This document shows positions 14,301-31,862 of a DNA stretch of 64,000 bases, piece after piece. This stretch comes from Patescibacteria group bacterium (GTDB lineage: Bacteria; Patescibacteriota; Minisyncoccia; Phycocordibacterales; JACOZG01): assembly GCA_034658935.1 (NCBI GenBank), contig JAYEGE010000006.1, positions 24,912 to 88,911 of the forward strand, read 5' to 3'. The notes below the pieces were generated by a model, which was not told where the DNA came from, did not search any database, and saw only the letters and a program-made list of their open reading frames with translations. The first letter of the stretch is position 1, and each line of letters opens with the position of its first letter. A program made the translations under genes and the position numbers.

Positions 14301-15671
14301 TCAGTCTTCTTTATACAGGAGTAGGCGGATTTGTTCTATCTCTTGGGACAGCAGGCTATTGTCCTTAAGGTCCTGTCGGATTTTCTCATAGGCGTGTATA
14401 ACGGTCGTGTGATCTCTATTGCCCATCTTCTGTCCTATATATGGGTAAGAGGTATTAAAGTCTTCACGCAAGATATACATGATCACTTGACGAGGTTTGA
14501 CCACTTCCTTCTTTCTGGTTTTCTCGTAGAGATATCTTTCGTTTATATTGTAGAAATTTGCCACTATGTTGGCGACATCTTTAACGGCAATCGTTTTCTT
14601 GGGTTTAACGTTGTTCTTGATCAGATTTTTGACTTCATTGAGGTTTAAATTTCGTTTTTTCAATTGGCATTGGCAAACAATAGAATTAACTGTCCCCTCT
14701 AGTTCACGAATACTGTCCTGGATAGCGTTAGCGACATATTCAATCACCTCTTTCTCTAAAGAGAAGGGACTGGCTGTGAGTTTGCTGTTAAGAATAGCTA
14801 GACGGGACTCATAATCAGGCTTAATAACGTCAACCATCATTCCGCCCTCAAAACGCGACCGCAATCGCTCCTCTAACTTGACAATTTGCTTAGGCGGCTT
14901 GTCTGATGAAAAGAGAATCTGCTTATTATGCTCGTGATAATGGTTGAAAAGGTGGAATAATTCCTCTTGGGTTCGGTCTTTGTTAGAAAAAAACTGGACA
15001 TCATCCATAATTAAGACATCGTACTTGCGATATTTTTCTTTAAACTGATTGGCGCGGTTATTCCTAACTGAGTTGACGTAATCAACACCGAATTGTTCAG
15101 AAGTAACGTAAAAAACTTTTTTATTGGGGTGGTGTTTCTTAATGTAATTGCCAACTGCTTGAATTAAATGGGTTTTACCTAAGCCAGTACCACCGTAGAT
15201 ATATAATGGGTTGTAAACTTGACCAACTTTCTTTGTTACAGCCTGGCAAGCGGCATGGGCGAGCTCATTAAAGGGGCCCACAACAAAAGAGTCAAAGATA
15301 TACTTAGGATTAAGGTTGTCTTCACGGCTAGTGTAGAGCTCCTCCAGGTTTAGCTGATTGCTGAAAGATGGCTTAACTGTGGGCTTAATTGGTGTTTGCT
15401 GATCATTAGTTGCTCGTGGGGCGATGATGTATTCTACTCCCCTGACGGTTGGTTCTAATTGACGAAGTGAACGTAAAATTAAAGTATGGTACTTGTCAGA
15501 CAGCCAATCGCGAACGAAATGATTGGGTACTCCGATTACTAAAGTGCTGCCATCCTGTTTTATAACGCGTGTTTTACTGAACCAAGTACCGAAGCTTGCT
15601 TTAGACACCTCAACTTCGATCCCTGCTAAGGTGTCGTCCCATAACTTCTTTGAGTCGAGGGTCATCGTCAC
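14301..15671 (-). CDS. dnaA: chromosomal replication initiator DnaA
   Basis: 456 aa with Walker A GGTGLGKTHL, AAA+ domain III and a C-terminal DNA-binding domain. Confidence 0.95.
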   Translation of the reverse strand: MTMTLDSKKLWDDTLAGIEVEVSKASFGTWFSKTRVIKQDGSTLVIGVPNHFVRDWLSDKYHTLILRSLRQLEPTVRGVEYIIAPRATNDQQTPIKPTVKPSFSNQLNLEELYTSREDNLNPKYIFDSFVVGPFNELAHAACQAVTKKVGQVYNPLYIYGGTGLGKTHLIQAVGNYIKKHHPNKKVFYVTSEQFGVDYVNSVRNNRANQFKEKYRKYDVLIMDDVQFFSNKDRTQEELFHLFNHYHEHNKQILFSSDKPPKQIVKLEERLRSRFEGGMMVDVIKPDYESRLAILNSKLTASPFSLEKEVIEYVANAIQDSIRELEGTVNSIVCQCQLKKRNLNLNEVKNLIKNNVKPKKTIAVKDVANIVANFYNINERYLYEKTRKKEVVKPRQVIMYILREDFNTSYPYIGQKMGNRDHTTVIHAYEKIRQDLKDNSLLSQEIEQIRLLLYKED

Positions 15672-16255: not shown

Positions 16256-16999
16256 ATGAAAGCTCTCTTCAAAACAGTTTTTTATATTCCGCTTTATAAT
16301 GGCTTAGCCGGCCTAGCGATTATTTTACCAGGCCATAATCTCGGATTGGCCGTTATTGTTTTGACTCTGATAGTGAAATTAATCCTTTCTCCTCTCCAAC
16401 GTCGAGTTTCTCATGCTCAACATAGGATGAAGGCGTTAGAACCTAAGATTAAGGCAATTAAGGACAAGCACAGTAAGGATAATACCGAGCAAGCACGCCA
16501 CATTATGGCGCTCTATAAGGAGTATCGGGTTAATCCTTTCTCGAGTATTATTGTTTTAATCATTCAAATTCCTATCCTGTTCGCTCTATATTACGTTTTT
16601 CGTAGCGGTTTCGACTTTGATCCTAACTTGCTCTACTCCTTCGTCCCCTCTCCAGTTGGTCTTAATCATTTCTTCTTGGGAATAGACCTAACTGTTGGTA
16701 ATTACGTCTTAGCTTTTTTGACGGGGTTAACGCAATTCTTCCAAGTTCGTTTTATGATGCCAGCGTCTACTGCGTCCTCGTCAGCTGATCCCTCTGACAT
16801 TAAGGCAAACTTGGCCAAGAGCATGCAGACTCAGATGAAGTATTTCCTACCTATAGTAGTGATTTTCATTGCCGCCAGTCTCCCGGCCGCTATCTCTCTT
16901 TATTGGATCACTAGTAACCTCTTTGCTTTAGCTCAAGAATGGTGGTTTAGAAGGCGGCTCCCAAGTCTAGAGCCCATAACTCCTGATCAGTCTTGTTAA
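16256..16999 (+). CDS. yidC: membrane protein insertase YidC (short form)
   Basis: 247 aa polytopic membrane protein downstream of rnpA, with a YidC/Oxa1-like hydrophobic core. Confidence 0.85.
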   Translation: MKALFKTVFYIPLYNGLAGLAIILPGHNLGLAVIVLTLIVKLILSPLQRRVSHAQHRMKALEPKIKAIKDKHSKDNTEQARHIMALYKEYRVNPFSSIIVLIIQIPILFALYYVFRSGFDFDPNLLYSFVPSPVGLNHFFLGIDLTVGNYVLAFLTGLTQFFQVRFMMPASTASSSADPSDIKANLAKSMQTQMKYFLPIVVIFIAASLPAAISLYWITSNLFALAQEWWFRRRLPSLEPITPDQSC

Positions 17000-18233
17000 T
17001 TAAGAAAAGATTCTCCTCTTTAGCATCGAGGAAGAGCTTGGTCGCATCTAAAGTGCGGCCCAGGTTGGCTAGTTCTGGGTTGTAGATAATCTCTGTTTTC
17101 CCTGAGTCTGTATCAATTTTCCAAATATTATCAGTGAAGCTAAACTCGCCTCTATACCAACCGTCGGGAAGAGAGCCGAGTGGCAAGCGAACTGGCACGC
17201 CACAATAGATGGTGACATTATCGCTGCTCCAAACACATTTCTCAGCTAGGGTATTAACTAGTAAACGTTTGAAAAGGTTTTCGCTAATAGGGTAAACGCC
17301 GAAGGCTAAACCATCACGAGTATTGCCACTATAGAGAACCTGTCGGCCATTGGGGCTTAATAAAGTAGACAAGCCGGGCACGCGATTGAAAACTAGCTGC
17401 TCGGTTTTAGTTTGTGTATTAATGGTGTAAAGCAAGCTGTCGAGATTGCTGGCAGTCTTAGTTTGTAATGCCAGCAATTCTTCGTTGGGCCAACTGATCA
17501 GCCATTCACTGAGCGGAGAAGAAAAGATTTCTACTTTTCCAGTCCCATCCCAATTAGCTAAGTAGCCAGTTGTGTTGTTTCTGCCGTCCTCAAGGTAAAA
17601 AATCCTGTCCTTTTGAGGCGAGGTGGCAATTTGGGTAATATTGGGGCTAAGAAAACTACCTTCCAATTCGCCTAGGTCGTTAATTGTGCCTGAATCTAGG
17701 CCGATTAAGGCGGCGCTAAAGTTTTGTAGTCTATTGTCGGTTTGGTATCTGGCGATTATTTGGATGGTCGTACTGGCATTATTTGTAGTCTCGCCGATCA
17801 ATAATTCTTCTACCTTAGGAATAGTGGTGTTACTCAATTGGCGTGAGGACAAAAGATCATCAGGACGGACGCCGAACAGATGGCCCCGTGCCTTGTCCAT
17901 ATAGATGACCATTGAGCTGCTGGCGTTGCCCACTAGGCTAGCCCCGGCGACCGGGCCAGAGGAGATTTTATTGAAGCCAGAAGCGAGACTTAGGTTGGGG
18001 TCGCCGGTGGTTCCTGTGCCGTCAGGTTGAGTTCCAGTTCCTGTGGGGCCTGTGATATCTGTGCCAGTTCCGGCACCAAGAGGTTGCCCACTAGGGAAGA
18101 AGGAGCCATTATCCGTATCGAGGGAGCTATCCCCTACTCCGCCGTCTTCAGGTGCTTGGCTGCCTCGCCACCAAATCCAAATGCCGCCAAGGACAACTAA
18201 GATAATTAAAACAATGATGATTATTTTTCTCAT
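16947..18233 (-). CDS. hypothetical membrane-anchored protein with Gly/Thr-rich linker
   Basis: 428 aa with an N-terminal TM, then GTGTDITGPTGTGTQPDGTGTTGDP low-complexity and a beta-rich C-terminal domain. It is the first gene of the T4SS-like minus-strand cluster. Confidence 0.55.
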   Translation of the reverse strand: MRKIIIIVLIILVVLGGIWIWWRGSQAPEDGGVGDSSLDTDNGSFFPSGQPLGAGTGTDITGPTGTGTQPDGTGTTGDPNLSLASGFNKISSGPVAGASLVGNASSSMVIYMDKARGHLFGVRPDDLLSSRQLSNTTIPKVEELLIGETTNNASTTIQIIARYQTDNRLQNFSAALIGLDSGTINDLGELEGSFLSPNITQIATSPQKDRIFYLEDGRNNTTGYLANWDGTGKVEIFSSPLSEWLISWPNEELLALQTKTASNLDSLLYTINTQTKTEQLVFNRVPGLSTLLSPNGRQVLYSGNTRDGLAFGVYPISENLFKRLLVNTLAEKCVWSSDNVTIYCGVPVRLPLGSLPDGWYRGEFSFTDNIWKIDTDSGKTEIIYNPELANLGRTLDATKLFLDAKEENLFLINKTDQELWALDLGAAF

Positions 18234-18595
18234 GATGATGATCCACCAAAAATATTAGAAAGTTTTACTAGGTCGGGGTTAATCTCATTTAAGATTAGCC
18301 AGGCGGCTAACAGTAATATTAGGCCCCAAACGGCCGACTTCATTTTACCCGTACCATTGCTTTTGCCGCTAGGTAATTCGCTCATCATATGAAGGAGGCC
18401 TCCGTAAGCGAATTGGACTACGGCGATAGCGGCAGCTAGACCTAGAACAACCGTGAAAGCGGGGCCGAGATACTTCTCAATGCCAGAGACTTCATTGCCT
18501 AACCCAGGAATTGTTTCTAGTAATTGCACGCTATCTGCCGCTAGGGCCTGGGCAATAAATTTTTTGGCTACCAGCCAATCCATTAGAGTATTCAT
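18230..18595 (-). CDS. putative VirB2/TrbC-like pilin-type protein
   Basis: 121 aa with two hydrophobic helices separated by a short loop. Size and topology fit T4SS pilin subunits; the call is topological only. Confidence 0.4.
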   Translation of the reverse strand: MNTLMDWLVAKKFIAQALAADSVQLLETIPGLGNEVSGIEKYLGPAFTVVLGLAAAIAVVQFAYGGLLHMMSELPSGKSNGTGKMKSAVWGLILLLAAWLILNEINPDLVKLSNIFGGSSS

Positions 18596-19347
18596 TAGAA
18601 GTCGAAATTTGGTTGGTTAAATTGGATACTCAATTTAGCTGTAGTTTCCTGGAGTAATTTATCCAGAGCCTTGGCCGCGAGTCTAAGTTCGTTGCTCCCA
18701 CTCCTGCCTTCTGGGGCGATCAATGTTACTTGCCACGGCTTATTTTGGTCGAGAATGATTGGTTCGCCGTTTAGGGACCAGGAAAATTGCACTCGATGAC
18801 CGAGCACGTCGGGATGAGAGAAGAAAAATGGCTCAGCACTTAGAGTAATCTCTGGTCGAGTCAAATTGATTATGCCCGTCCTAGCCCGATGACGTGCTAG
18901 GCCGGTTGAGGGCTTGTCTTCGTAGATCATTAGACGAGGCTCAATTACTGGAATACTTGTTTCCTTACTAAGTAATTCCCCATTGGGGCTAGTGACGGTC
19001 ACTTTGATTTGGTGGGCCAAGCCTTCAGCCCCAGTGGTGAAGGTCATTTGGCGCTCACCTGCCCCAGAAACACTGCTTATTCTCCGGCCGTCCTTTTCCC
19101 ACTTGAATAACAAATCATTATGGCTGATTTGGTTACCCTGACTATTGTAGAATTCAGTATCAGCCACAATGATGACCTTGCTTTTGGTGCTGGCGGCACT
19201 ATGACCACGATAAAGGGGTGGTGTGTAAGTCTCAGCCTCCCAAAGCAGGTCTACTCTATTAGTAGTTTGGGCAGTGGCTAGTCCGCAACTTAGGGTAACC
19301 CCTAGGGCTAAGACGAGTGTTAGAATAATATTGAAACGATAACTCAT
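18595..19347 (-). CDS. hypothetical secreted protein
   Basis: 250 aa with signal peptide MSYRFNIILTLVLALGVTLSCGLATA; no known motifs. Confidence 0.55.
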   Translation of the reverse strand: MSYRFNIILTLVLALGVTLSCGLATAQTTNRVDLLWEAETYTPPLYRGHSAASTKSKVIIVADTEFYNSQGNQISHNDLLFKWEKDGRRISSVSGAGERQMTFTTGAEGLAHQIKVTVTSPNGELLSKETSIPVIEPRLMIYEDKPSTGLARHRARTGIINLTRPEITLSAEPFFFSHPDVLGHRVQFSWSLNGEPIILDQNKPWQVTLIAPEGRSGSNELRLAAKALDKLLQETTAKLSIQFNQPNFDF

Positions 19348-19851
19348 TTATTTCTTGGCCAGCTTCTTAGTTGGCAATTTGATGCCCGATTTCTCTTCAA
19401 ATCTTACTATAACTATAGTGATAATCATAGCGAGCGTGAGTGATGGTATGACGCTTACAGCCGGTATTACCTCAATGATCAAACTAATGATTGGCGCCGC
19501 TAATCGGCGCATATTCAAGAGACCAACTCCTAAGATATATAACCAGAGGCCGAAGATTATCCAGGCGGTCGGGGCAACAATTATATTTACTATTGGGATC
19601 AGGCTAATAAGATCGAGGACAAGGGCAACCACGATCAAGAATGCGGCTGATAGCCAACTAATTTTGGGTGCGGCTTGAGATTCTCCAGCCCCTTTCTTTG
19701 CTGCCGGAGCTCCCTTTTTGGCCAGTCTGCCTCCCTGCTTTAGCCGACCAACTGGTCTTCCGCCAGCCGGACCCGGCCTCTCTGGAGCCTGTTTAGCTCT
19801 CCTATTAAGCACTTGGGCTACTTCGCCTCCGACTTTAGGTGATGGATCCAT
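19348..19851 (-). CDS. hypothetical polytopic membrane protein
   Basis: 167 aa with a basic N-terminal region and 3-4 predicted TM helices, next to the VirB4-like ATPase. Confidence 0.5.
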   Translation of the reverse strand: MDPSPKVGGEVAQVLNRRAKQAPERPGPAGGRPVGRLKQGGRLAKKGAPAAKKGAGESQAAPKISWLSAAFLIVVALVLDLISLIPIVNIIVAPTAWIIFGLWLYILGVGLLNMRRLAAPIISLIIEVIPAVSVIPSLTLAMIITIVIVRFEEKSGIKLPTKKLAKK

Positions 19852-19863
19852 ACGATTTTATGT

Positions 19864-21684
19864 CTATTTCTCGGTCCCTTCTTCCAGCTCTTGCTTGGCC
19901 TTCTTGATTGCCAGGAGTTGAGAAGGATCAGAAGTGATGATTTGGTCTTCGGTATAGGAGGCGATGATCTTGATGGCCACGTGCTTGAGGCCGGCGAAGA
20001 AGATGCCCTCCCCTACTCCTGACTCTAATAGTAGGTATTTCTCCTCGTCGGTTAATTGGAAAGTTCTTTGAACTACATCAATCGAGGCCGGCGATTGTTT
20101 GAGTAGAAGTTGCATAGAGGAATTGGTGATAATCGGCAAGCCATATTCAGATTTTAAGAAGTCGCTAATATCTTGGGTGATTGTGGAGACGCCAAGAAAA
20201 TATTTACGACCACGTTTAACTAGAGAGAAAAGGAATGAAGCGGTGTCGGGTGATTTCATCATCCACCAAGCCTCGTCGATTATTAGGAGTCGTTTCTTTA
20301 GATTACGCCTAATCGAGTTCCAAATATTATGCATTACAATATACATGGCAACGGGTTTGAGCTCATCCTCCATATCGCGAACCGAGAAGACAACGAACTT
20401 CTTATTGATGTCTACATTGGTTGGCTTGTTGATGAAACCTGCCCAGGTGCCGCGGGTGTACTTCAATAATCTTTGAGCTAAAGATTCTCCACCCTCCATT
20501 CCCACTAGGACTAACTCTAGGTCAGAGAGAAGTGGGGCTGGTTTGTTGGTGAAATCAGAGTCGGCGGTGATGTCTTTGAGGGCGTAAGTTTCAGTAATGG
20601 CGCTGTCGATGATGGCATCCTCCTCAGGCGTGAGGCCACCAAGCATTAATCTAAAGAGTCCGACTAGATTGATGATGTTGGAGCGCAATACGTCGGCCGG
20701 CGACTCGTCTTCGCGGGGGAAAGGTAGGTCGAAAGGATTGATGTGGTGTTCACTTGTTAAAGAGATATTGAAATAGCGTCCGCCCACTGCTTTAGCCAAG
20801 AATTCATACTCTCGTTCGGGATCAATAACGATGATGTCGGAGCCAAACATCAGGCTCCGCAAGATTTCTAATTTAGTAGCGTAAGACTTGCCAGAACCAG
20901 ATTGGGCAAATACTACTGAGTTGTAGTTTTCTAGGCTGAAGCGGTCAAAAAGGACCAAGGAGGAGTTGTGGCGATTGATACCATGGAGGATGCCTTTATT
21001 TGAAGTAAGGTCGAAGGAGACGAAGGGGAAAATGGAGGATAGAGGAGTAGAATTAAGCTTATAATTAACTCCTAATAGGTCGGTGGCTATTGGTAGGACA
21101 CTCTTGAAGCCCTCGGCTTGCTGGAAGAGGGCGGGCTTAATATAGACCAATTTAGCGTCTAGAATGCCCTTAATCTCATTCTCGATACGATCGAGCTCGT
21201 CTGCGCTGTCGCCATAGATGGTGACGTAAACACCAACGTCGAAAATTTTTTCTCGGGCTTGTTGGAGACTGTCACGTAGAGCCTCGATGTCAGCATAGGC
21301 GGTATCAAGAATCGGGTCGCGGACTAGACCCTTCTTTTCTTTAATATTGATTTGGCTTTGTACCTCAGCCACTTTCTTCTCTAATTGCCTTAAAGCTAAG
21401 GCGGAATTGATTGGGTGAATAAGGATGGAGACGTCGAAAATCTTGTCGAGATTGATCACTGGCGAGAACCAGTCTCCACTTAGGAAGCGTGGATAGGAGA
21501 TAATATAGAAGGTGCGGGCTATTTTATCGCCCAAATTAAGCATTCGTGGCGTAACCCGTAATGCCGATGGAGCGATAATATCGCGGAATTCTAACACCCC
21601 CATTTGGTAGATGTCTTGAGGGTAAACAGGTGTTGTCACCGCTTCCTCCTTATCTTTTTTTCCTAATAAGCCAAATAAAGCCAT
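19864..21684 (-). CDS. VirB4/TraE-like type IV secretion ATPase (main part)
   Basis: 606 aa with Walker A SGSGKSY, Walker B IIDEAWW, and an N-terminal region ARTFYIISYPRFLSGDWFSPVINL typical of VirB4 homologues from Gram-positive conjugation systems. Confidence 0.85.
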   Translation of the reverse strand: MALFGLLGKKDKEEAVTTPVYPQDIYQMGVLEFRDIIAPSALRVTPRMLNLGDKIARTFYIISYPRFLSGDWFSPVINLDKIFDVSILIHPINSALALRQLEKKVAEVQSQINIKEKKGLVRDPILDTAYADIEALRDSLQQAREKIFDVGVYVTIYGDSADELDRIENEIKGILDAKLVYIKPALFQQAEGFKSVLPIATDLLGVNYKLNSTPLSSIFPFVSFDLTSNKGILHGINRHNSSLVLFDRFSLENYNSVVFAQSGSGKSYATKLEILRSLMFGSDIIVIDPEREYEFLAKAVGGRYFNISLTSEHHINPFDLPFPREDESPADVLRSNIINLVGLFRLMLGGLTPEEDAIIDSAITETYALKDITADSDFTNKPAPLLSDLELVLVGMEGGESLAQRLLKYTRGTWAGFINKPTNVDINKKFVVFSVRDMEDELKPVAMYIVMHNIWNSIRRNLKKRLLIIDEAWWMMKSPDTASFLFSLVKRGRKYFLGVSTITQDISDFLKSEYGLPIITNSSMQLLLKQSPASIDVVQRTFQLTDEEKYLLLESGVGEGIFFAGLKHVAIKIIASYTEDQIITSDPSQLLAIKKAKQELEEGTEK

Positions 21685-21686
21685 AA

Positions 21687-22349
21687 TTAAATTGATGGTA
21701 CTTCTGATTCTCCCGGATTAAAGATTTTGAAATAAACCTCAACCAATTCTTCGGTACCCAATTGGACTGTCCGTAGGCCCATACTACCAAAGCCCTGTTC
21801 GACAACTGCACTACGTTGCTCAAGCTGCATTCGACGTTCTTCGAAGTCCTTACTCTGCTCGCTGTCAGCCCCCTCTTTCTTCTTAGTTGGTAAGATCCAA
21901 CTGATTATTCCTTTGCGGCCCCCGCCTTCCCCAATGATCGGTGGGCTATAAGGGATAACCACGAAGAAACTCTTAGACATGATCTCTGTTGACTCGGTAA
22001 ATTTACGGATAAACTCGATATACTCTCGAGTCTGGATCTTCATTAGGTCATTAGTTTGTTCAGTCAAGCGCTCCTCTAAGGTCCGTAGATAAGGACGGAT
22101 ATCAAGGCGGCGCGACTGGACAAAAATTTGCAGGCTGAAGTCTAGGGAGTTAAGGAAATTTTGGAATTGCAACAAGATGGCGGTTTGCTCGTCCGTTGAT
22201 TTTAGAGCGAAGTTGATTGAGGAGACCATTAAGAGCATTCGTAGGGAACCGTCCTTCAAGATAACAACGCCATCGCGGATTTCTTTGATGGGTACGAAAT
22301 CTTGTGCCGCTCTCGCTGGTTTACCTGATTTAATAGTGCTATCAGCCAT
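21687..22349 (-). CDS. VirB4 N-terminal-domain-like protein (separate ORF)
   Basis: 220 aa. DFVPIKEIRDGVVILKDGSLRMLLMVSSINFALKSTDEQ resembles the N-terminus of conjugative VirB4-family ATPases. Its stop lies 2 nt before the ATG of the 606-aa ATPase. Confidence 0.55.
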   Translation of the reverse strand: MADSTIKSGKPARAAQDFVPIKEIRDGVVILKDGSLRMLLMVSSINFALKSTDEQTAILLQFQNFLNSLDFSLQIFVQSRRLDIRPYLRTLEERLTEQTNDLMKIQTREYIEFIRKFTESTEIMSKSFFVVIPYSPPIIGEGGGRKGIISWILPTKKKEGADSEQSKDFEERRMQLEQRSAVVEQGFGSMGLRTVQLGTEELVEVYFKIFNPGESEVPSI

Positions 22350-22386
22350 GCTTTTTATTTTAGCATCTTTTATTAGATGCCCGGTA

Positions 22387-22794
22387 TTATCTAATGGTTT
22401 CTTTAACGTCTAGGCTCCAGGCTAGGTCCTTCAATTTGCTTTGTGAGAGACGAGGGACTTGGACTCCTTTTTTAGTTGAGTCTGCTTGCTCGGCCTCAGT
22501 ATTGGTCTCAGGCGCTTGGTGGCGCCAGATGAATAGCTTGCCCGACATAAAGTAACGGAGGGCCGACTCCATTACTAAGATGAAGGATCTATTGTTGATC
22601 CTATAGAAGGCTAAGGCTAGGGCCAGAGCGGCGATTGGTGCCATTAATATAATAGCTAGTGGTTTGAAAGATATCAGGGACCAGATAAGGAAGCATGTTC
22701 CTCCTCCACCGGCCAGGTAGGCAAATTGTTTGAAGGTTAGGGGGCCGAAAATTTTGTCTTCGACCTCAATAAATTGTGGTACCTGGAAATTCAT
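22387..22794 (-). CDS. PrgI/VirB3-like small membrane protein
   Basis: 135 aa. MNFQVPQFIEVEDKIFGPLTFKQFAYLAGGGG followed by two TM helices matches the PrgI-family (VirB3 analogue) pattern. Confidence 0.6.
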   Translation of the reverse strand: MNFQVPQFIEVEDKIFGPLTFKQFAYLAGGGGTCFLIWSLISFKPLAIILMAPIAALALALAFYRINNRSFILVMESALRYFMSGKLFIWRHQAPETNTEAEQADSTKKGVQVPRLSQSKLKDLAWSLDVKETIR

Positions 22795-22795
22795 T

Positions 22796-23674
22796 TTAAT
22801 TGGTTGGTTCTCTATAGGGATCTACGTGTTTGGGCGCAGTATCGACTGGTAGAGATTCAATCGGGGAACCAAAGTTCTTTTTAGTGGCGATCTCCACTCG
22901 CGGTAATTTATAATGACCGCCTAATTTTTGTTCAAACATATTGGGCTGACCGGCCTCGCCACTCGGTGCGGTCTTTTTTGCTCCACCTTCGGGGGCGACG
23001 GGTAGGTTGTTTGGTGGCGCGGCCGTGCTTAGCTCACTTAAGTCGGGTTTCTCAACGTCGCGCATAGCTATCCGTATGGGGAGGAAGATCTGCTTATTAA
23101 TTTCTTCGCTGATCTTAGTTGCTGTTTCCATATCTATGCCTAAACTAGTCTGCAATTGCTTAGGGAATTGGGTGGCGGTAGTTTGCCCAAGAATAACTTT
23201 GGTAGCTTCTTCGTTTAATTTCCCCATCTGATCGATATGGAGATTGTGTTGTTGGGCGATGAACATTGTCTTTGCCTCGGTATCCATGGAAGATAGTACC
23301 TCGCGAATACTCGTAGGCAAGGTAGAGTAACGGTCGTTGATTTTCTGCTCTCGAGCCTGTTGTTCAGTGTTGAGCTTTAGGATTGTTTCTTCAACATCTC
23401 GGAAGACTCTCTCTCGGACGCCGTTTATTAGTTGATCGGTAGTTGGTAAATTAATTGCCTTCTTGATATTGCTACCGAAATCATTTAGTTCTTCTAAACC
23501 AAAGAGAACTAGAGCGACCTCTATCTTTAGATCGTGTATTTGCCCACTATCTAATTGGTATCGGCGACCGATTTCAATTAGCTTATCTTCCCAATTATCA
23601 TGCCGAATAAAGTCCTGCAGGCGTGAAGGCAGGTATGGAAGCTCGGCAGCAAATTGTTTGATTATTTCATCCAT
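22796..23674 (-). CDS. hypothetical protein
   Basis: 292 aa, largely alpha-helical and charged, with a Pro-rich C-terminal region; located within the T4SS-like cluster. Confidence 0.5.
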   Translation of the reverse strand: MDEIIKQFAAELPYLPSRLQDFIRHDNWEDKLIEIGRRYQLDSGQIHDLKIEVALVLFGLEELNDFGSNIKKAINLPTTDQLINGVRERVFRDVEETILKLNTEQQAREQKINDRYSTLPTSIREVLSSMDTEAKTMFIAQQHNLHIDQMGKLNEEATKVILGQTTATQFPKQLQTSLGIDMETATKISEEINKQIFLPIRIAMRDVEKPDLSELSTAAPPNNLPVAPEGGAKKTAPSGEAGQPNMFEQKLGGHYKLPRVEIATKKNFGSPIESLPVDTAPKHVDPYREPTN

Positions 23675-23684
23675 AGTATTTTAA

Positions 23685-26051
23685 TTATGACGCCTCACCA
23701 CCTGCAGGCGCTCTCCCTTCTCCACCTTCGCTACTACCTCCACTGGTCCTGTCGCTCTTTTCTTGACCCTTCTTGAAATCCGACAATAATTTGGCCATTT
23801 TCTTCGCCTCTTTGTTTCCCTTGGATTCTCTAGCGTCGTCTCTGACTTTCTTCGCCATGGCTTTGCGCGTTTTCTTGGTATTAAAGGTTGCTAAGGTATA
23901 GAGGAGGCCCCCCTCTTCCAGCCTCTTGGCGTATGCCTCCTTACGCTCTATCCGCGCCTTTGTTGGGGCCTCTTCCGCCTCTTTTTTGGCGGTTTTTAAT
24001 TTAGCCTCGGCTTGTCGGACGCGCTCCTCATAGTTGCCAATTGTATTTCGTGCTTGTCTTGCTTTGACGGTCGAGGAATTTGGATTAGTGGCGAATTCCT
24101 CGATTCTCTCTAGATCGGCTTTCCTAGCAGTAACTTCACGTGCCGCCTCCTCTCGCCTCTGTACAGCCGCCGTGGTGGCCGCTTCCATTGCGGCTTTGTC
24201 CTTATCGCCCAGGACTTCATCACTGAATTTCTGTGCCTTCTCAGCCTTTTTCTTGACGCCCCCAGTATAACCACCCTTGCCTCCGGCTTTGCCTAGGTCC
24301 AGCCCAGTATGCTTACCTGCCGCTTTACCAAGTTTGCCGCCGAGTTTAGTGGCTCGAACATCGAAGCTGGCACCCGATGTTTTCTTAGAGACCTTAAGAG
24401 TTTGTCTCGCAGCCCAACCACCAAAGCCTCCCTGCTCCTCTCTCCTCTTGAGTCTATCTGAGTCACTCAATCTGGTAGCTACTCGGCCGATGGTGTTGCG
24501 TCCAGCAAGGGCCGCGCCACCAAGTACTGCTGCTCCAGTAGCGACCCCCGCTACTTTCATGGCGGAACCAGCAGTTGCCCCACCAAGTTTTTTGGCGGCT
24601 ATGAGAGATCCGAACATAAAGCCGATGATTAATAATTGGTAGACAATTTGGTTTACCCAACCACCATCGGCTCCGACAGCGGTCCTTGTTGTTGGACCCA
24701 GTAATTCAAAGGTTACGAAGATAAAGAACAAAAAGAAGGGGGCCAAGAAGGCTTCGCTGAGTAATTTGCGTAGCCACTTATCCCAATGTTTTCGCATTTC
24801 AGGTATAGCGTAAGCGGCGAAGGCCGCAGGAGAAAGGATCATCAAGACTATTAGGGTTATCGCCCTGATGAGAAGAATCACTGCTCCGGCTATTAGGACG
24901 AAGGTCGCGAGTAGTATTAGGACAAAGGCTCCAGCAAAATTTATGACAACCTGTTTGAACGATAATTGAGTTTTTTCCTCGGGAGCAGATGCGTTAGTCT
25001 GATCTTTTGGTGTAAATGCGTTATCAAGCTTCAGGCGATTGTAAAATTCCCCGGAGATGCCCCATTCAGTGACGCCCTCACTGGTTTTACTGACTCGGTC
25101 ATAAAATTGAACAGCTAAGATATTGGAGACGTCGATTATTACTCTGGTGAAAAACAAGCTGAAATTGATCAGCAGGGCAATCAAGACGACATTCTTTATT
25201 AGCCCCCCACTTTCCCCCTCTTTTACCTGCAGGATGGTGCGGATGGCAACGAAGAGGAGGATAAATATAAAGACGACATTTGCTAGGTTTCTTAACACAC
25301 TCCATACTGCTCGGATTGCCGGGATGTTGCCTAACCCCACAGAGCCCTCAGCAGCAGCTCCAGTGACCCCATTAGAGGAGGCATTAGCTCCAAAGTCTCT
25401 GATTGTAACGTCTAGTATGATGTCGAAGGCTTTGCCAGCCAGCCACATTAACCAGCTGAGTATCCAAAGTATCCAGTTCAGGGTGGCTGCCAAGAGATCG
25501 ATAGCACATTGCCCGAGATTGCTAAGACCACATTTTCCACCTCCCGATTCTTCTCCTGTTCCCCTAATCGCTTTTTGTTTTTGGTTAAGGCGCCCGTTGA
25601 CTAGCTTGTCTCTTAGGTCGTTAGCAGTACCAGTTTGTCTTTCTATAAAACCTGGTGCACTATTTGGGTCTTCGAAGAGAGATCCCGGGAATTTGGTCGC
25701 CTGAGTTATCCGGGCCATAGTGGCGTTGAGCTGATGTCTGAAACGTTCGGGATTGCCAACAGGGAGCTCATTGTTTTGGCTCATTTGTTCTTGCGCGTAA
25801 TCATTCAGTTGTCGCGCACTCATTTCATCTAGTGTCTGTTGCGTATCGCGGTCTTCGGTCGCTATTTGGTTGTCAGTCTCTACCTCAGCCAAATTATCTT
25901 CTGCGGCGTAAGGGTCACCAGGCTCATAGAATTGACCTCTGGCCAATTGAGGATGAGCGAGGAAAGAAGATGCGACCAACAGACACAAACAAATAAAAAT
26001 TAACCCTATTGATCTGCCCCCCGCGTTTCTATTTTCTGGAGAATCCGCCAT
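23685..26051 (-). CDS. VirB6/TrbL-like polytopic membrane protein with long Lys/Ala/Gly-rich C-terminal tail
   Basis: 788 aa with a signal peptide, an extracellular region, about 6 TM helices, then a roughly 300-aa basic low-complexity tail (KK, GGK, AAK repeats). Confidence 0.6.
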   Translation of the reverse strand: MADSPENRNAGGRSIGLIFICLCLLVASSFLAHPQLARGQFYEPGDPYAAEDNLAEVETDNQIATEDRDTQQTLDEMSARQLNDYAQEQMSQNNELPVGNPERFRHQLNATMARITQATKFPGSLFEDPNSAPGFIERQTGTANDLRDKLVNGRLNQKQKAIRGTGEESGGGKCGLSNLGQCAIDLLAATLNWILWILSWLMWLAGKAFDIILDVTIRDFGANASSNGVTGAAAEGSVGLGNIPAIRAVWSVLRNLANVVFIFILLFVAIRTILQVKEGESGGLIKNVVLIALLINFSLFFTRVIIDVSNILAVQFYDRVSKTSEGVTEWGISGEFYNRLKLDNAFTPKDQTNASAPEEKTQLSFKQVVINFAGAFVLILLATFVLIAGAVILLIRAITLIVLMILSPAAFAAYAIPEMRKHWDKWLRKLLSEAFLAPFFLFFIFVTFELLGPTTRTAVGADGGWVNQIVYQLLIIGFMFGSLIAAKKLGGATAGSAMKVAGVATGAAVLGGAALAGRNTIGRVATRLSDSDRLKRREEQGGFGGWAARQTLKVSKKTSGASFDVRATKLGGKLGKAAGKHTGLDLGKAGGKGGYTGGVKKKAEKAQKFSDEVLGDKDKAAMEAATTAAVQRREEAAREVTARKADLERIEEFATNPNSSTVKARQARNTIGNYEERVRQAEAKLKTAKKEAEEAPTKARIERKEAYAKRLEEGGLLYTLATFNTKKTRKAMAKKVRDDARESKGNKEAKKMAKLLSDFKKGQEKSDRTSGGSSEGGEGRAPAGGEAS

Positions 26052-26052
26052 C

Positions 26053-28440
26053 TTAATTGGTTACTGACTGAAGCAAAGTTATGATAAAGTTGATGATCGC
26101 ATTTCGTAAATTCTCTACGGCATCGGGTCCTAAATCATCTCGTAGCAGGTCTTGATTGTTGGCAACAAATTGGTCGGCAAAGTCGGGGATGGTGTGGTTT
26201 ACATCCCATTGGCTCGGAGCCCTGTCCCCTTCGAATAGGTTAGTTATGTCTTGGAAATCAATCAAATCATTGAGAGCGTCTTCTCCTCCTTGAAAGAAAT
26301 CATCGATTAAGTCGTTAAGAAAGTCGTCGAGGTTGTCGGTAAGGGTGTTACCGAAATCCGCTTGCCAACTGCTGGGCCCTTGGCTATTGGTAGTGACGTC
26401 ACTTCCCGGGAAACCTTCTCTGTCTGGGGTAGCTTCTTCGTTCTCCCAGCCGGTGTCTGGGCATGGCTCAGTGCCGGGGCAAGGGTCGCCATCTTCCATT
26501 GGGTTCTCGATCTCTTCTTCGTCGATGAAGCCAGATTCACCCAGCTTCTTATTAATCGCTTGGATTTGTTTGACTAAGTAATCAGCATTGAAGGAAGGGT
26601 CATTGATCGCCAAGTCGAGATAAGCCTTAAGGTAGGCTTGTTGCATTGCCCGCATGGTGGCAGCGTCAGTGATGATCTCTTCTCTCCGACAATGCCCGTT
26701 TTTACTAAAGTCAACACATATTTTGATTCCCAGCCAGCCTTCGTTGGCGATGAGTTCTTCCCTGATATTTTGTTCAGTTACCTCCGTCTTTTGGTCGACT
26801 TCTCGTCTGGTTAGTAGGTAGGCGGTAAATTGATTATTGCCGGCTGTTGGGTCCCAAAAGTCAATATTGTCTCGCAGGGGGTCGTCACTCTCCCCTCTCA
26901 GAAAGGCGTCTCCTCTCTCTTGCCAAGTTTCGGAGGGCCCGACCCTGTCAGCAAGGTTTTGTCGTTGCTGATTTTCTTCGAGGATATCTCTGGCGGACTG
27001 AGCAGCCAATGGGGCTTCATTTTCTATTTCCTCTAAGTCGTCAATAACTACCAGAAAAGCATTTCTAATTTCGTCTAGGACCCTACGACGAAGGTTGGTG
27101 GTATAGAGAGGTGTAGTATTGGTGCCCTCAACATCCGTTGCTGATTTGGGCAAGACATGACCTGCGTTAACTAAGGAGAAATTTTCCCCAGCCGCTTTGT
27201 TTATGCCTCGGGCTCGGTTTTTAAAAGAATCAGGTTGGAGCTTACGGAAATAATTATTAAGGGCGGTGAGTTCACCAAGGATCATGTGCAAGCGGAAACA
27301 AGATTCAGAAAGCAAGTTCTTGTGCTTGAGTTGCTCCTCATAGTCTCGGTCCTCGTTCTCGTTACTCTGCTTAGTTTGTTTGTCTATGTTGCCTAGGATT
27401 TGGTGAGTAGTTGCGTCTGAGACTGGCACGCTATTTATTCCGCCGAGCCCCCCCAGATCTCCACCGCTAAACATCCCACCAAGGAAGTCAGTTAATGTGC
27501 CGTCTGTGAAATTGCTGAGGAGGCCATCAAAGCCATCTTCGATACCAAATCCTTCGAGAATGCTACTGGCGCCCCCGAGCCCAAAATCATCGAGGAGATT
27601 GTTAAAACTGAATCCTTCCTCTCCATCTCCAAGACCAAAGCCTTCGAAGAGGTCATTGAGAAAGCCTCCGTCCTGTTCCTGCTCCTTTTCGCACTTTTTC
27701 CGGTACTGTTTCCGCATGTCCTCTAAGCTTTTTTGATCAACAGCGCCGAAATTACCGCTAGTTCCTCCCCCAAAGATGCCGCCAAGATTTCCGATAGTGG
27801 AGAGGTCGCCTAAGTCGCCTGCTCCAACGATTTCACCAACGCTTCCCAGGGTGCCGGCATTGCCGAGGATCCCGTCTGCATCTCCAAGAATATTTCCGAC
27901 GTCTGCAATACTGCTAATATCTCCGATGTCTCCAAAGTCACCGATACTAAAGTCTCCAAGGATATCCCCAAAATCTCCGAGGAAGCCACCCTCTCCAAGA
28001 GCTCCGACACTCTCAAGAATATCTCCAATATCTCCAATACTGCCGATGTCTCCCACATCTCCAATAAGATCACCGAGGTCTCCAAGGCCACTGATCTCGC
28101 CGAGGTTAATGAAGTCTCCTAGGTCTCCGATGCTATCAATACCTGTGAAGTCCCCCAGATCTCCTAGCACTCCGTCAAGATCTCCAAGGAGATTTCCCAT
28201 GTCACCAAGGTCGTTGATATCTCCCAAATCGCTGAAGATACTACTGAAGTCGTCGAAATTAAAGTCTCCAGTGTCGCCGAGATCGGTTAGAAGGTCCCCA
28301 AGATCTCCAAGACTGGTGATGTCTCCGAAATTATCGAAAGAGAATTGAGCAGAAGCGCGTTGTGGCACCAGGCTGGCCGCTGTCACCAGGAGCCCTATTG
28401 CTAACCCGCTGGTGATAAATTTTTTCAATAAGGTTTTCAT
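26053..28440 (-). CDS. hypothetical secreted Gly-Asp repeat protein
   Basis: 795 aa with signal peptide MKTLLKKFITSGLAIGLLVTAASLVPQRASA. The N-terminal roughly 230 aa consist of about 40 degenerate (L/I)GD(L/I/F)GD units, followed by an acidic non-repetitive C-terminal domain. Confidence 0.6.
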   Translation of the reverse strand: MKTLLKKFITSGLAIGLLVTAASLVPQRASAQFSFDNFGDITSLGDLGDLLTDLGDTGDFNFDDFSSIFSDLGDINDLGDMGNLLGDLDGVLGDLGDFTGIDSIGDLGDFINLGEISGLGDLGDLIGDVGDIGSIGDIGDILESVGALGEGGFLGDFGDILGDFSIGDFGDIGDISSIADVGNILGDADGILGNAGTLGSVGEIVGAGDLGDLSTIGNLGGIFGGGTSGNFGAVDQKSLEDMRKQYRKKCEKEQEQDGGFLNDLFEGFGLGDGEEGFSFNNLLDDFGLGGASSILEGFGIEDGFDGLLSNFTDGTLTDFLGGMFSGGDLGGLGGINSVPVSDATTHQILGNIDKQTKQSNENEDRDYEEQLKHKNLLSESCFRLHMILGELTALNNYFRKLQPDSFKNRARGINKAAGENFSLVNAGHVLPKSATDVEGTNTTPLYTTNLRRRVLDEIRNAFLVVIDDLEEIENEAPLAAQSARDILEENQQRQNLADRVGPSETWQERGDAFLRGESDDPLRDNIDFWDPTAGNNQFTAYLLTRREVDQKTEVTEQNIREELIANEGWLGIKICVDFSKNGHCRREEIITDAATMRAMQQAYLKAYLDLAINDPSFNADYLVKQIQAINKKLGESGFIDEEEIENPMEDGDPCPGTEPCPDTGWENEEATPDREGFPGSDVTTNSQGPSSWQADFGNTLTDNLDDFLNDLIDDFFQGGEDALNDLIDFQDITNLFEGDRAPSQWDVNHTIPDFADQFVANNQDLLRDDLGPDAVENLRNAIINFIITLLQSVTN

Positions 28441-29285
28441 TATTTATATTGATCGAGATCTATACCTTGGTTATAAAAATAGCGATCCAATTGAGCGATG
28501 GCGCCGGCCACAGCTATCGCCTTGCCGGTATATACTTGGGTACTTTGGAAGGCGAGGACTGGTTCGTTAGGGATGCGAGAGATGTCGCGGATATTATTGG
28601 ATAGATCTTGCAAGCTATTAACCACATCTAGGTGCGTGGCTGCTGCGCTTTGTGGTACTGCGGCGCCACTCATCCTAGTGGCTCGTTGTTGGAAGAAATT
28701 ACTCATGCCAATGAGTTTGGTAATAATTGCTGGGTTACTATTTTCGTCGTAAGCCAAGGCGAGCCCAACAGCATTTTCTCCAGAGAAGGTCCGCATGTTT
28801 CTGAGGAACCCAACGAATACCAGGGTGTAAGCCTCAAGGGTGGCCTGATTAGTAGCCACAATATTGAGATCAGAGATCCGATAGCTGGTCTGACGCTGAG
28901 CTAATTCTTCCTGCTCTAGTTTCAGGAGCGGCTTCGTCCTCTCTTTTAGAGCTTGGCCCAGGGTGGCGGCTGCCCGCTCTTCTGGTCGGATCAATTGATC
29001 CCCTGGTCCAGGCTTGGTGGGGCTACGATCAGCTAGAACCTCGGCTCCATCGACGGTGCCGTCGCCGTCCGTGTCAGGATTATCTAGGTCACTACCCCAA
29101 AGCAGTTCTTCCCAATCGGCCAAGCCGTCGTTGTCACTGTCGCCCTGTTCTTGAAGGTAGAAAGGGACGTCGCTGTCTGTACCTGGGTTTTGTAGGCTTT
29201 TATCGCCGACGTACCATAAGGAAAATAACCCACCAGCAAGGAGGACAACCAGTAGCAAAACTACAATAAAAATTCTTCTCCCCAC
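28440..29285 (-). CDS. hypothetical membrane-anchored protein with DxDxDG calcium-binding-like motifs
   Basis: 281 aa with an N-terminal TM and motifs DSDNDGLADWEE and DTDGDGTVDGAE (thrombospondin type 3 / EF-hand-like). Confidence 0.55.
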   Translation of the reverse strand: MGRRIFIVVLLLVVLLAGGLFSLWYVGDKSLQNPGTDSDVPFYLQEQGDSDNDGLADWEELLWGSDLDNPDTDGDGTVDGAEVLADRSPTKPGPGDQLIRPEERAAATLGQALKERTKPLLKLEQEELAQRQTSYRISDLNIVATNQATLEAYTLVFVGFLRNMRTFSGENAVGLALAYDENSNPAIITKLIGMSNFFQQRATRMSGAAVPQSAAATHLDVVNSLQDLSNNIRDISRIPNEPVLAFQSTQVYTGKAIAVAGAIAQLDRYFYNQGIDLDQYK

Positions 29286-29380: not shown

Positions 29381-29998
29381 ATGTTTAAGTTCTCAGTTTG
29401 GCTTGTAATTGTGTTACTTATTTTGCCTGTTTTGGGTGCGGGGCCGATGGTCTCGGCTAGCATTTTGGATGTTGATAGGCATACGGCTACGCTTCCTCAG
29501 GAACCTGATCCAGAACCTATTCCTGCGGCGCCTGGTGAGTTTTTTAGTAATCGGCAGGAGTTGATCGCTACGTTGACGACAATGATAGGTCTCCTGCAGC
29601 AAATTATAATTTTAAAGCAAGAAAAGACTCCTGCTACTCAAAATACGACTAACCTTAGTCAGAGTAAGGTCGAAGCTGATGATGACGATTCTCTTTCCCT
29701 ACTTTCCACTGCTCCTACTATCACTAGCGTTAGCCCCACCTACGGTCCAAATGGCACCAGGGTTACCTTGCGGGGGGAAGGATTTACTCCCACCGACAAT
29801 ATTATCTTTACTGGTTTTGATCGAGTTGTCGCTAGTTCGGCCAATGGCGAGAGCCTAAGTTTTACTTTAGTTTCACCTTGGCGACCGGACGCAGCTTGGT
29901 CCCCCGGCTCTAACTTCCCTGAAATTAAATTACGTTTTTATGTCCGCAATAGCTGGGGGCAGACGGAAGTGCCAGGAGAATTTGTTTTCGATTTTTAA
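29381..29998 (+). CDS. hypothetical secreted protein with IPT/TIG-like domain
   Basis: 205 aa with a signal peptide; ITSVSPTYGPNGTRVTLRGEGF resembles an IPT/TIG Ig-like fold. Confidence 0.5.
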   Translation: MFKFSVWLVIVLLILPVLGAGPMVSASILDVDRHTATLPQEPDPEPIPAAPGEFFSNRQELIATLTTMIGLLQQIIILKQEKTPATQNTTNLSQSKVEADDDDSLSLLSTAPTITSVSPTYGPNGTRVTLRGEGFTPTDNIIFTGFDRVVASSANGESLSFTLVSPWRPDAAWSPGSNFPEIKLRFYVRNSWGQTEVPGEFVFDF

Positions 29999-30004
29999 TT
30001 TTGC

Positions 30005-30397
30005 TTGAATAATCCTATGTTTAATTTTAGAAAATCTAAGTTTACCTTTCTTAGTTTGTTGATTGCCCTTGTTTTGATCTTTGGTGCCCAATGGTTGTCT
30101 GGTTCACGAACAGAAAAAGCGGAGGCCCTATCGATGACTAATTTTGGCGGCCCGGTTTTAATGTCTCTCGTTTGTTGTGATGGGATAATGATCGTAGTTG
30201 GCCCACCGGCGCCCGGCAGGTTCCTATTTGGTATCAGTTCTATTCCTTACGCCTGGTACAATTTTGCCACTCCTGGAGCGAATGTCTTGGGGACTTATAA
30301 TCCTGGTGGCTCATGCAGGTTATTGCCCTATTGTTATCCTATTATTCCGCTTGATGGGACGATCGGAATAATCGGTAGCTCTGGTCTGGGGATCTAG
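30005..30397 (+). CDS. hypothetical small secreted/membrane protein
   Basis: 130 aa with an N-terminal TM; Cys and Gly/Pro-rich. Confidence 0.45.
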   Translation: MNNPMFNFRKSKFTFLSLLIALVLIFGAQWLSGSRTEKAEALSMTNFGGPVLMSLVCCDGIMIVVGPPAPGRFLFGISSIPYAWYNFATPGANVLGTYNPGGSCRLLPYCYPIIPLDGTIGIIGSSGLGI

Positions 30398-30900: not shown

Positions 30901-31643
30901 TGTTCTAAAGTTAATTCTTCAGCTCTCGCCTTGGGTTCAATTTTACAACTCTCTAATACGTCTGTCGATACATTTAAATTGCTAGCAAGTAATTTACGTT
31001 TATGAGCAAAGCCCTTTTTAAGTAAAGTGAAGAATCTTTCTTCCTCTCCCTTGGTAGCCAACCTATCTCGAGAAATCTCATCAATAAGTAATATGGCCGA
31101 ATCAACTTTAGACCTTGGTGTGAAGTGCCTGGCGGCAACTCTGGCAACGAGACGTGGCTGACCAAAAACTTTCACGCTTAAAGACAGTAAACTTTCTTTA
31201 ACTTTGGTGCGGGCGCCGCGGCGAGCCGTGGTTGCGATGCGCTCTGCTACTTCTTGTTGGAGCATTAAGACCACTAACTCGGGTTGTTGCACGGCGGTTA
31301 GTAGCTGGCGCAGGATCTGTCCGGTCAGATAATACGGAATATTGGCCACCACCTTGTATTTACCCTTAAGCGCTTGGTCGACGATATCGCCATGAATGAC
31401 CACTAATTTCCCCGTTTCCACCGCCCCACTGAAGCGATTATTGAGAAAACTGATTAACCGATCGTCTTTTTCCACTGCCACCACCTTCCCCGCCTGTTTC
31501 AATAGGGCCCCAGTTAGGAAACCCCTTCCCGGCCCTATTTCGAGTACGGCGTCTTTGGTTCCCAATTTGGCAGCCTTAATGATTTTGCTCCGAATAGCCG
31601 CGCTATTCAGCCAATTTTGCCCCAATGATTTCTTCGCCCTCAT
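30858..31643 (-). CDS. rsmA: 16S rRNA (adenine1518/1519-N6)-dimethyltransferase
   Basis: 261 aa with SAM-binding motif LEIGPGRGFLT and the NIPY motif (VVANIPYY). Confidence 0.9.
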   Translation of the reverse strand: MRAKKSLGQNWLNSAAIRSKIIKAAKLGTKDAVLEIGPGRGFLTGALLKQAGKVVAVEKDDRLISFLNNRFSGAVETGKLVVIHGDIVDQALKGKYKVVANIPYYLTGQILRQLLTAVQQPELVVLMLQQEVAERIATTARRGARTKVKESLLSLSVKVFGQPRLVARVAARHFTPRSKVDSAILLIDEISRDRLATKGEEERFFTLLKKGFAHKRKLLASNLNVSTDVLESCKIEPKARAEELTLEQWLCLTNFINTQAK

Positions 31644-31674
31644 ACTTCTGTCCCCAATCTGGCCTCCTTATCCC

Positions 31675-31698
31675 ATTTGGACACTTCGTGTCCAAATT
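31675..31698. repeat. REP palindrome TTTGGACACTTCGTGTCCAAAT
   Basis: Perfect palindrome inside the 3-prime end of the RAYT ORF. Confidence 0.9.
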
Positions 31699-31838
31699 TA
31701 TTTTCGACAATATCTTGGAGGGAAGCCTCGGCGAACTCTCGGTATTCTTTGGGGCTCCCGAATTGGCTTAAAATAAGGCTTTTATCGCAGATCGTCCCCG
31801 CGTTATCTCCCAAATACTCACTCCAACTAGTCCGTGCT

Positions 31839-31862
31839 AATTTGGACACTGCGTGTCCAAAT
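31839..31862. repeat. REP palindrome TTTGGACACTGCGTGTCCAAAT
   Basis: Perfect palindrome inside the RAYT ORF. Confidence 0.9.

Follow-up and report, generated by a model that had tools for sequence, protein, structure and literature searches.

We analysed a stretch of 64,000 nucleotides from a Patescibacteria group bacterium (assembly GCA_034658935.1, contig JAYEGE010000006.1, positions 24,912–88,911; hereafter the window), in which the minus strand of positions 16947–29285 carries an operon that we take to encode a type IV secretion system (T4SS) of the kind described for Patescibacteria. The region holds 11 open reading frames (ORFs), all co-directional and separated by intergenic gaps of only −4 to +37 nucleotides, so that they almost certainly form one operon; the plus-strand ORFs within the same interval are short and overlap the minus-strand genes. 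We number the genes g11 to g1 in the direction of transcription, g11 (28440–29285) being the first gene of the operon and g1 (16947–18233) the last. An earlier interpretation made from the letters alone (hereafter the sequence-only reading) had described twelve co-directional, tightly packed genes; direction and packing are as it said, and an ORF is present at every set of coordinates that it gave, but the ORF list contains 11 genes. The GC content of the operon region (0.45–0.49) does not differ from that of its flanks. Three proteins of the window are recorded at NCBI as hypothetical proteins, under the locus tags U9M92_01495, U9M92_01520 and U9M92_01530. Promoter and terminator scans returned nothing exceeding the shuffled expectation, and tRNAs were the sole matches of an Rfam scan.

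The product of g5 (19864–21684, 606 residues) is the body of a VirB4 ATPase. It scores 359.5 bits (cut-off 325; E = 3.5e-107) against the CD1110-family VirB4 model NF045971, over model positions 179–733, its second-best model being the VirB4 of Mycoplasma integrative and conjugative elements (ICEs; 2.4e-77, below the curated cut-off). It also matches the TraC, VirB4/CagE and TrbE models, and Walker A (SGSGKS) and Walker B (LLIIDE) motifs can be read in its sequence. Its top Pfam match is PF19044 (P-loop_TraG, 8e-25), a family named after the VirB4-type TraG of Bacteroides transposons and not after a coupling protein. An ATPase of the FtsK/HerA or VirD4 type (TraG-like), which the sequence-only reading had named as the alternative to VirB4, can be rejected: the strong matches are all to VirB4, TraC and TrbE, the NF045971 score lies above the cut-off, and the coupling-protein model of SXT TraD reaches only E = 0.14.

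The neighbouring gene g6 (21687–22349, 220 residues) encodes a TrsD-like protein equivalent to the N-domain of VirB4. It matches positions 2–111 of the CD1110-type VirB4 model, positions 99–233 of the Mycoplasma VirB4 model and the TrsD/TraD model NF041427 (1.7e-7), in all cases below the curated cut-offs. Since g6 covers approximately the first 110 positions and g5 positions 179–733, the two proteins tile a full-length VirB4. For comparison, a VirB4 search against one genome per species gave 555 confirmed relatives; the counts of loci reported below refer to the best 80 of them, which share 73–86% identity with the query, are all metagenome-assembled genomes and are mostly labelled Patescibacteria, Parcubacteria, Paceibacterota, Nomurabacteria, Kaiserbacteria and similar. 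Separate TrsD-like and VirB4 genes are kept in 76 related loci, with gaps and reading frames that vary from one locus to another, which argues that the division of VirB4 into an N-domain ORF and an ATPase body, already proposed in the sequence-only reading, is real.

Two other core parts were assigned above the cut-off of a family model. The product of g7 (22387–22794, 135 residues) belongs to the PrgI family, the equivalent of VirB3, with 40.3 bits against PF12666 (cut-off 27; E = 4.8e-10) and a hydrophobic hairpin at residues 32–67 in its hydropathy profile. The product of g2 (18230–18595, 121 residues) is a VirB2-like pilin with two hydrophobic helices in its hydropathy profile, which matches T4SS_pilin PF18895 with 33.9 bits (cut-off 26.6; E = 3.3e-8), its only NCBIfam match being to the Mbov_0395 pilin-like model NF045849 (6.5e-7, below the curated cut-off). 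These identities agree with the PrgI/VirB3-like protein and the two-helix VirB2-like protein of the sequence-only reading. PF18895 is matched by 50 of the 58 g2 orthologues, and a family hidden Markov model (HMM) detected no second pilin copy in the 64-kb window. Whereas g2 is a stand-alone pilin of 121 residues, the pilin-like protein is mostly longer in relatives (for instance at L083, 18052–19698, and L084, 12533–14137), exceeding 170 residues in 44 of 57. About 12 of the 58 orthologues bear C-terminal cell-wall enzyme domains (NlpC/P60, YkuD, VanY/M15 or Amidase_5), and an SLT domain occurs on the pilin-like protein of one metagenome contig. In relatives with such domains, the pilin-like module may anchor a VirB1-like wall hydrolase, judging from the domain architecture.

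The assignment of g9 (23685–26051, 788 residues) is less firm. Its product displays an N-terminal hydrophobic segment followed by about six more transmembrane-like segments between residues 183 and 484 (about seven in total) and a hydrophilic, Lys/Ala/Gly/Glu-rich tail of about 300 residues, i.e. the architecture of an extended VirB6. Sub-threshold matches to the CD3337/EF1877 mobilome membrane protein (5.2e-5) and TraJ (1.3e-3) are weak, the TrbL/VirB6 family PF04610, which is the sole recurrent family, is found in 8 of 43 orthologues (best 6e-5), and a profile search of the PDB with the g9 family gave no VirB6 match and nothing else meaningful. Thus, of the VirB6-like polytopic protein with a long tail that had been proposed here, the topology and the tail stand, the family identity is weak, and we consider g9 a probable, not proven, VirB6-like protein.

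The six remaining genes (g1, g3, g4, g8, g10 and g11) are interleaved with the core. The sequence-only reading had given all six products a signal peptide or a transmembrane anchor, which is correct for five of them and not for g8 (22796–23674, 292 residues), whose hydropathy profile contains neither and which is predicted to be cytoplasmic. The g8 protein consists of two copies of a helical domain of about 90 residues, present as one copy in most relatives, and of a variable Pro-rich linker. It ends in the motif DPYRE, of which D285, P286, Y287 and E289 are at least 90% conserved in an alignment of 43 orthologues; the motif lies within the last 9 residues, although the preceding linker is hypervariable. 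Judged by its sequence, DPYRE has the appearance of a short peptide used for docking or recognition. Pfam and PDB profile searches with g8 returned no match and nothing meaningful, and its 30 database homologues are all annotated as hypothetical, with no domain and no fusion; in particular, a fusion of g8 to PrgI was looked for and not seen among these 30 proteins.

The largest of the six products is that of g10 (26053–28440, 795 residues), the GD-repeat protein of the sequence-only reading. It begins with a signal peptide, followed by an acidic GD-repeat region (residues 39–330) that indeed contains 28 GD dipeptides, and by a conserved, mostly α-helical domain of about 400 residues (residues ~304–725). 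The GD repeats occur in no relative, where the N-terminus is either another kind of low-complexity sequence (Q/L-rich or G/N/T-rich) or missing. A profile search with the conserved domain among 1.84 billion representatives retrieved 4,093 clusters, defined at 50% identity, at E ≤ 1e-3, and 2,907 at E ≤ 1e-10; another profile search gave five proteins, by a word-index method that is too insensitive for fast-evolving proteins. Pfam has no model of the domain, and neither a sequence search of the PDB nor structural comparison with the PDB and BFVD gave a match. Because the AlphaFold2 model of the window's own domain was poor (pLDDT, the predicted local distance difference test, 58.8; pTM, the predicted template-modelling score, 0.26), a canonical member of the family was modelled; its model is of moderate quality (pLDDT 71, pTM 0.57) and all-α, with several helices of 30–40 residues. 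A VirB5-like fold was considered for g10 and is not supported by this model of moderate quality, but may still apply.

The product of g1 (428 residues) comprises a transmembrane-like segment (residues 1–25) serving as anchor, a Gly/Thr-rich linker, which the sequence-only reading had noticed, and conserved Cys residues. Its family profile matches TolB β-propellers in the PDB (7mx5, 6.1e-5), and its orthologues contain PD40 (three), DPPIV_N (one) and PG_binding_1 (four) domains, so that g1 is probably a wall-associated, membrane-tethered β-propeller resembling TolB/PD40. The g3 protein (18595–19347, 250 residues) starts with a hydrophobic segment, after which comes an A-x-A-like site, i.e. a Sec-type signal peptide, and is presumably secreted. 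Its family profile matches the immunoglobulin-like (Ig-like) phage decoration protein Hoc (3shs, 6e-4), a Pfam scan of 70 family members found no recurrent family, and a homologue search with the single sequence gave two proteins, again by a word-index method too insensitive for fast-evolving proteins. A β-sandwich or Ig-like fold is thus possible for g3, with low confidence. In the small membrane protein encoded by g4 (19348–19851, 167 residues), a basic N-terminus rich in Gly, Pro and Lys precedes hydrophobic segments (residues 60–152). Finally, the g11 protein (281 residues) starts with a transmembrane-like segment (residues 1–28) and carries, at residues ~49–85, calcium-binding repeats of the DxDxDG/TSP3 type, by the evidence of its sequence; the DxDxDG motif had been named in the sequence-only reading. 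The TSP3_bac model is below its cut-off in g11 itself and is matched by 14 of 31 orthologues (best 2.8e-10), and the family profile matches the calcium-binding region of the biofilm surface protein 7c7u (6e-6). The C-terminal domain of g11 is conserved, with Y153 and H218 invariant, and its fold was not recognised.

Every protein of the window was compared by tblastn with the 80 related loci. Matches were found in 79 loci for TrsD (g6), 77 for g3, 76 for PrgI (g7), 67 for g1, 64 for VirB6 (g9), 57 for the pilin (g2), 45 for g8, 32 for g11, at the same position, 13 for g4 and 3 for g10. The last figure reflects divergence, not absence: an iterative HMM seeded with residues 316–700 of g10 recovers the ~400-residue domain in about 50 loci, in the ORF that precedes the VirB6-like gene, a family member being always encoded immediately 5' of that gene. 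The sequence of g4 is poorly conserved, but in 46 of 75 loci VirB4 is followed by a small ORF that contains one or more hydrophobic segments, mostly two or three. The order that recurs is uvrD–ksgA–(DUF192)–g11–[large ORF, g10]–VirB6–g8–PrgI–TrsD–VirB4–(small membrane ORF, g4)–g3–pilin–g1–yidC–rnpA–dnaA–dnaN, and the same gene order surrounds three more distant members of the g10 family on unrelated metagenome contigs. The arrangement seen in the window is therefore shared with its relatives. The accessory proteins had been put forward as lineage-specific parts, which does not hold: in dozens of species-level genomes of the class, five of the six are found at the same position, and g4 partly so. 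Only the GD-repeat N-terminus of g10 is specific to this genome. The best tblastn matches of g3 (L077, L063, L067, L016 and L047), g1 (L059), g8 (L053 and L061) and VirB6 (L018) contain an in-frame stop, which could represent pseudogenes, assembly errors or artefacts of alignment run-through.

The operon lies among housekeeping genes. On its downstream side are yidC (16256–16999), rnpA, dnaA (14301–15671) and dnaN, and on its upstream side a divergent gene for a TIG-domain protein, a DUF192 gene, ksgA, an IS200-like transposase gene and uvrD. Near 14 kb, next to dnaN–dnaA/rnpA–yidC, the sign of the GC skew switches, which fits a replication origin beside dnaA; DnaA boxes number 20 in the window against 12 expected, with no cluster at dnaA. 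The other ORFs scanned in the window are housekeeping genes or matchless and include genes for a PilB-like ATPase, RuvABC, PBP1, TyrRS, the CCA-adding enzyme, RNase Y, Alr, ClpP, trigger factor and an H+-PPase; about 3 kb added beyond the window contain housekeeping genes only. In agreement with the sequence-only reading, no relaxase, VirD4, VirB8, VirB9, VirB10, VirB11 or flanking integrase was detected in the locus or among the scanned ORFs of the 64-kb window. That reading had taken a locus flanked by VirD4, a relaxase and an integrase to be the mark of an ordinary ICE; what flanks the operon is the housekeeping genes listed above.

Systems of this kind have been described. Among 3,035 Patescibacteria genomes surveyed by Quinonero-Coronel et al. 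in 2025 (PMC12102498), 2,417 encode VirB4, nearly all of one clade nested in the FATA class of mating-pair-formation systems (MPF-FATA); the surroundings of virB4 include TrsD, PrgI/VirB3, VirB6 and VirB2-like pilins but seldom a coupling protein, and relaxases are present in only about 100 of the 3,035 genomes. In the Paceibacteria, the cluster is close to dnaA, dnaN, rnpA and ksgA (PMC12102498). The window reproduces this layout, with a FATA-type VirB4, TrsD, PrgI/VirB3, a probable VirB6-like protein, a PF18895 pilin, neither relaxase nor coupling protein nearby and the same chromosomal site, and nothing essential differs. Hence, the resemblance to the minimal VirB4/VirB6-centred machinery of ultrasmall episymbionts, and the contrast with a conventional conjugation module, that had been drawn in the sequence-only reading match the published account, and the word novel, which it also used, was too strong since the system had already been described (PMC12102498). 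That study leaves the other neighbouring genes unannotated, whereas here five of them receive a conserved position and tentative folds or motifs, and g4 a partly conserved position. The present genome has a single stand-alone pilin and, on g10, a GD-repeat N-terminus found in no relative.

A counterpart of known importance to its owner is the homologous cluster of Southlakia epibionticum, found by transposon sequencing (Tn-seq) to be essential for growth on the host (Wang et al. 2023, PMC10633639). It adjoins dnaA/dnaN, lacks a recognisable coupling protein or relaxase and encodes, at the end equivalent to that of g3, the essential exported Ig-like/prealbumin-like proteins SEML1_0004 and SEML1_0005 (PMC10633639). 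The cluster of strain ML1 (SEML1_0004–0019) thus shares with the window the dnaA/dnaN site, VirB4, a TrsD-like protein, PrgI, PF18895 pilins and exported β-sandwich proteins, and it has VirB6-like proteins to which the probable VirB6-like g9 would correspond. In contrast, S. epibionticum, a member of the Saccharimonadia, possesses six genes for pilins, an NTF2-like (VirB8-like) protein and, immediately 3' of virB4, genes for lysozyme and DD-peptidase, where the window operon has one pilin and no recognised hydrolase or NTF2-like protein, together with g8, g10, g11 and the TolB-like g1. In a 2025 review, the Patescibacteria systems count as a new and accepted branch within the T4SS superfamily, and the pilus is suggested, speculatively, to serve uptake or the passage of signals as a conduit (PMC12857230).

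More distant likenesses lead to the T4SSs of Gram-positive bacteria (PrgH–PrgI–PrgJ of pCF10, CD1110 of C. difficile CTn2, TrsD of pGO1), which share the VirB6–VirB3(PrgI)–VirB4 order (with g9 as the probable VirB6), the CD1110-type VirB4, the TrsD-like N-domain protein and the lack of an outer-membrane core (VirB7/9/10). They differ in residing on plasmids or ICEs, in encoding a relaxase, a coupling protein, a wall hydrolase, a VirB8-like protein and surface adhesins, and in having no VirB2-like pilins, whereas the window operon is chromosomal and fixed in place, with a pilin and without DNA-processing parts. The Mycoplasma ICE (pilin-like Mbov_0395, VirB4 Mbov_0397) provides the second-best VirB4 model and the pilin family; its genes are on mobile elements, and the window proteins match them below the curated cut-offs.

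Altogether, we consider it likely (with a probability of roughly 0.85) that the 11 genes form a chromosomal operon, beside the replication origin, for the Patescibacteria T4SS in its Paceibacteria order, derived from the conjugation machinery of single-membrane bacteria and no longer a conjugation module. In Gram-negative and Gram-positive systems, a VirB4 hexamer sits on VirB3 and VirB6 and drives the extraction and polymerisation of pilin. By analogy with such homologous systems, VirB4 and the TrsD-like N-domain protein would dock on PrgI/VirB3 and the extended VirB6-like protein at the cytoplasmic membrane, and ATP hydrolysis would pull the VirB2-like pilin out of the membrane, to be polymerised into a short pilus or conduit crossing the wall. 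The g3, g1 and g11 proteins, and g10 with its hypervariable N-terminus, could form or decorate the wall-spanning part that touches the host, and g8, with its DPYRE motif, could act at the inner face as an adaptor or perhaps itself be a substrate. The lack of an outer-membrane core is consistent with a single-membrane envelope. The machine would probably serve an epibiotic lifestyle, by delivering proteins to a host bacterium or acquiring molecules from it, in place of plasmid transfer: the lack of DNA-processing parts, the fixed chromosomal site and the essential homologue in the Saccharimonadia all point to interaction with a host rather than to conjugation.

Several observations weigh against this interpretation. 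The fold assignments of g1 and g3 are weak (E of about 1e-4 to 1e-5), no fold was found for g8 or g10, and the assignment of g9 to VirB6 is based on sub-threshold matches. The C-terminal extensions present in most relatives, and the cell-wall enzyme domains of some, suggest that the pilin-like module perhaps serves as an anchor in the membrane instead of building a filament. The operon encodes neither a VirB8-like protein nor a cell-wall hydrolase, the nearest hydrolase candidate being a LysM and Peptidase_M23 protein (34524–35468, plus strand) 5 kb away. VirD4 homologues are reported to lie far from virB4 in most Patescibacteria, and the absence of VirD4 and relaxase noted above covers the 64-kb window only. 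Finally, the role in host-dependent growth is known from the S. epibionticum Tn-seq data and would extend to Paceibacteria systems by homology.

Three other explanations were weighed. The families nearest to the VirB4 are those of CD1110/CTn2 and the Mycoplasma ICE, the pilin resembles a pilin-like family of ICEs, and the window also contains the IS200-like transposase gene and a tyrosine recombinase gene (46228–47139), all of which could mean that the operon belongs to a conventional or decaying ICE that has lost its relaxase, coupling protein and integrase or carries them elsewhere. We regard this as highly improbable: dozens of species-level genomes have the operon, with intact ORFs, at one and the same place, flanked by yidC/dnaA and ksgA/uvrD, its GC content is that of its flanks, no relaxase or VirD4 is found among the scanned ORFs of the window, and relaxases are rare in Patescibacteria genomes (PMC12102498). 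Moreover, the recombinase, the only one in the window, looks like XerC/D and lies 17 kb off among housekeeping genes, and the IS200-like gene has a homologue at this place in 0 of the 80 related loci. A DNA or nucleotide importer resembling the archaeal Ced system would feed a bacterium unable to make nucleotides. In favour of this, Patescibacteria lack nucleotide synthesis, the T4SS of S. epibionticum is essential and its ComEC is not (PMC10633639, PMC12857230), the review cited above speculates on uptake via the pilus (PMC12857230), and VirB4 bears a weak similarity to CedB (7.4e-9). We nevertheless find it unlikely, as the 34.8 bits obtained with the CedB model NF041017 compare with a cut-off of 700, no CedA-like protein or other Ced component was recognised, and the direction of transport is a conjecture in all these systems.

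The third explanation accepts the core T4SS and holds that the six other proteins are unrelated envelope proteins, whose genes share the operon through genome compactness. In line with it, none of the six matches a known T4SS component and the domains detected are generic (TolB-like propeller, PG_binding_1, TSP3). However, the six genes are interleaved with the core, with gaps of 0–12 nucleotides or overlaps, five of them hold their relative position across many species and in distant metagenome contigs, and essential exported Ig-like proteins are encoded at the equivalent end of the S. epibionticum cluster, which makes this explanation unlikely. A more specific proposal is that the g10 family is an unrecognised extracellular T4SS component, for which a VirB5-like tip or stalk or a translocated effector are candidates, with its hypervariable N-terminus setting host specificity, and that g8, with its DPYRE motif, is an adaptor in place of the coupling protein; this proposal is speculative, and we would sooner bet against it than for it.

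No T4SS before that of the Patescibacteria had been shown to be essential to the cell that carries it. The locus analysed here adds no new kind of system; it gives a parts list for the Paceibacteria version, with 11 genes, among them five accessories whose place is fixed and a sixth for which this holds in part. What is new, and of modest added value, is the list of conserved parts itself, together with the observations that g10 belongs to a very large orphan family and that g8 ends in DPYRE; this family and this C-terminal motif are specific targets for further study of the machine.

Some neighbouring genes deserve mention. The IS200-like Y1 transposase ORF (31640–32365, minus strand; PF01797, 2.4e-10) lies between ksgA and uvrD and, given its absence from the related loci, looks like an insertion specific to this genome. 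Divergent from the operon start, the interval 29381–30397 (plus strand) encodes a TIG/IPT-domain protein of 205 residues and a 130-residue ORF, which are probably not core parts because their homologues adjoin the cluster in 4 of the 80 loci. A homologue of the LysM/M23 protein (59% identity) lies directly beside PrgI in the related locus L036, and this protein is a candidate wall hydrolase for the system. The ORFs 40261–41466 and 2789–3763 on the minus strand and 42993–43907 and 44005–44715 on the plus strand (236–401 residues) have no Pfam match. The PilB-like ATPase of the window (3921–5618, plus strand) matches the T2SSE family PF00437 (1.7e-114) and points to a type IV pilus system in this genome, as also reported for other Patescibacteria.

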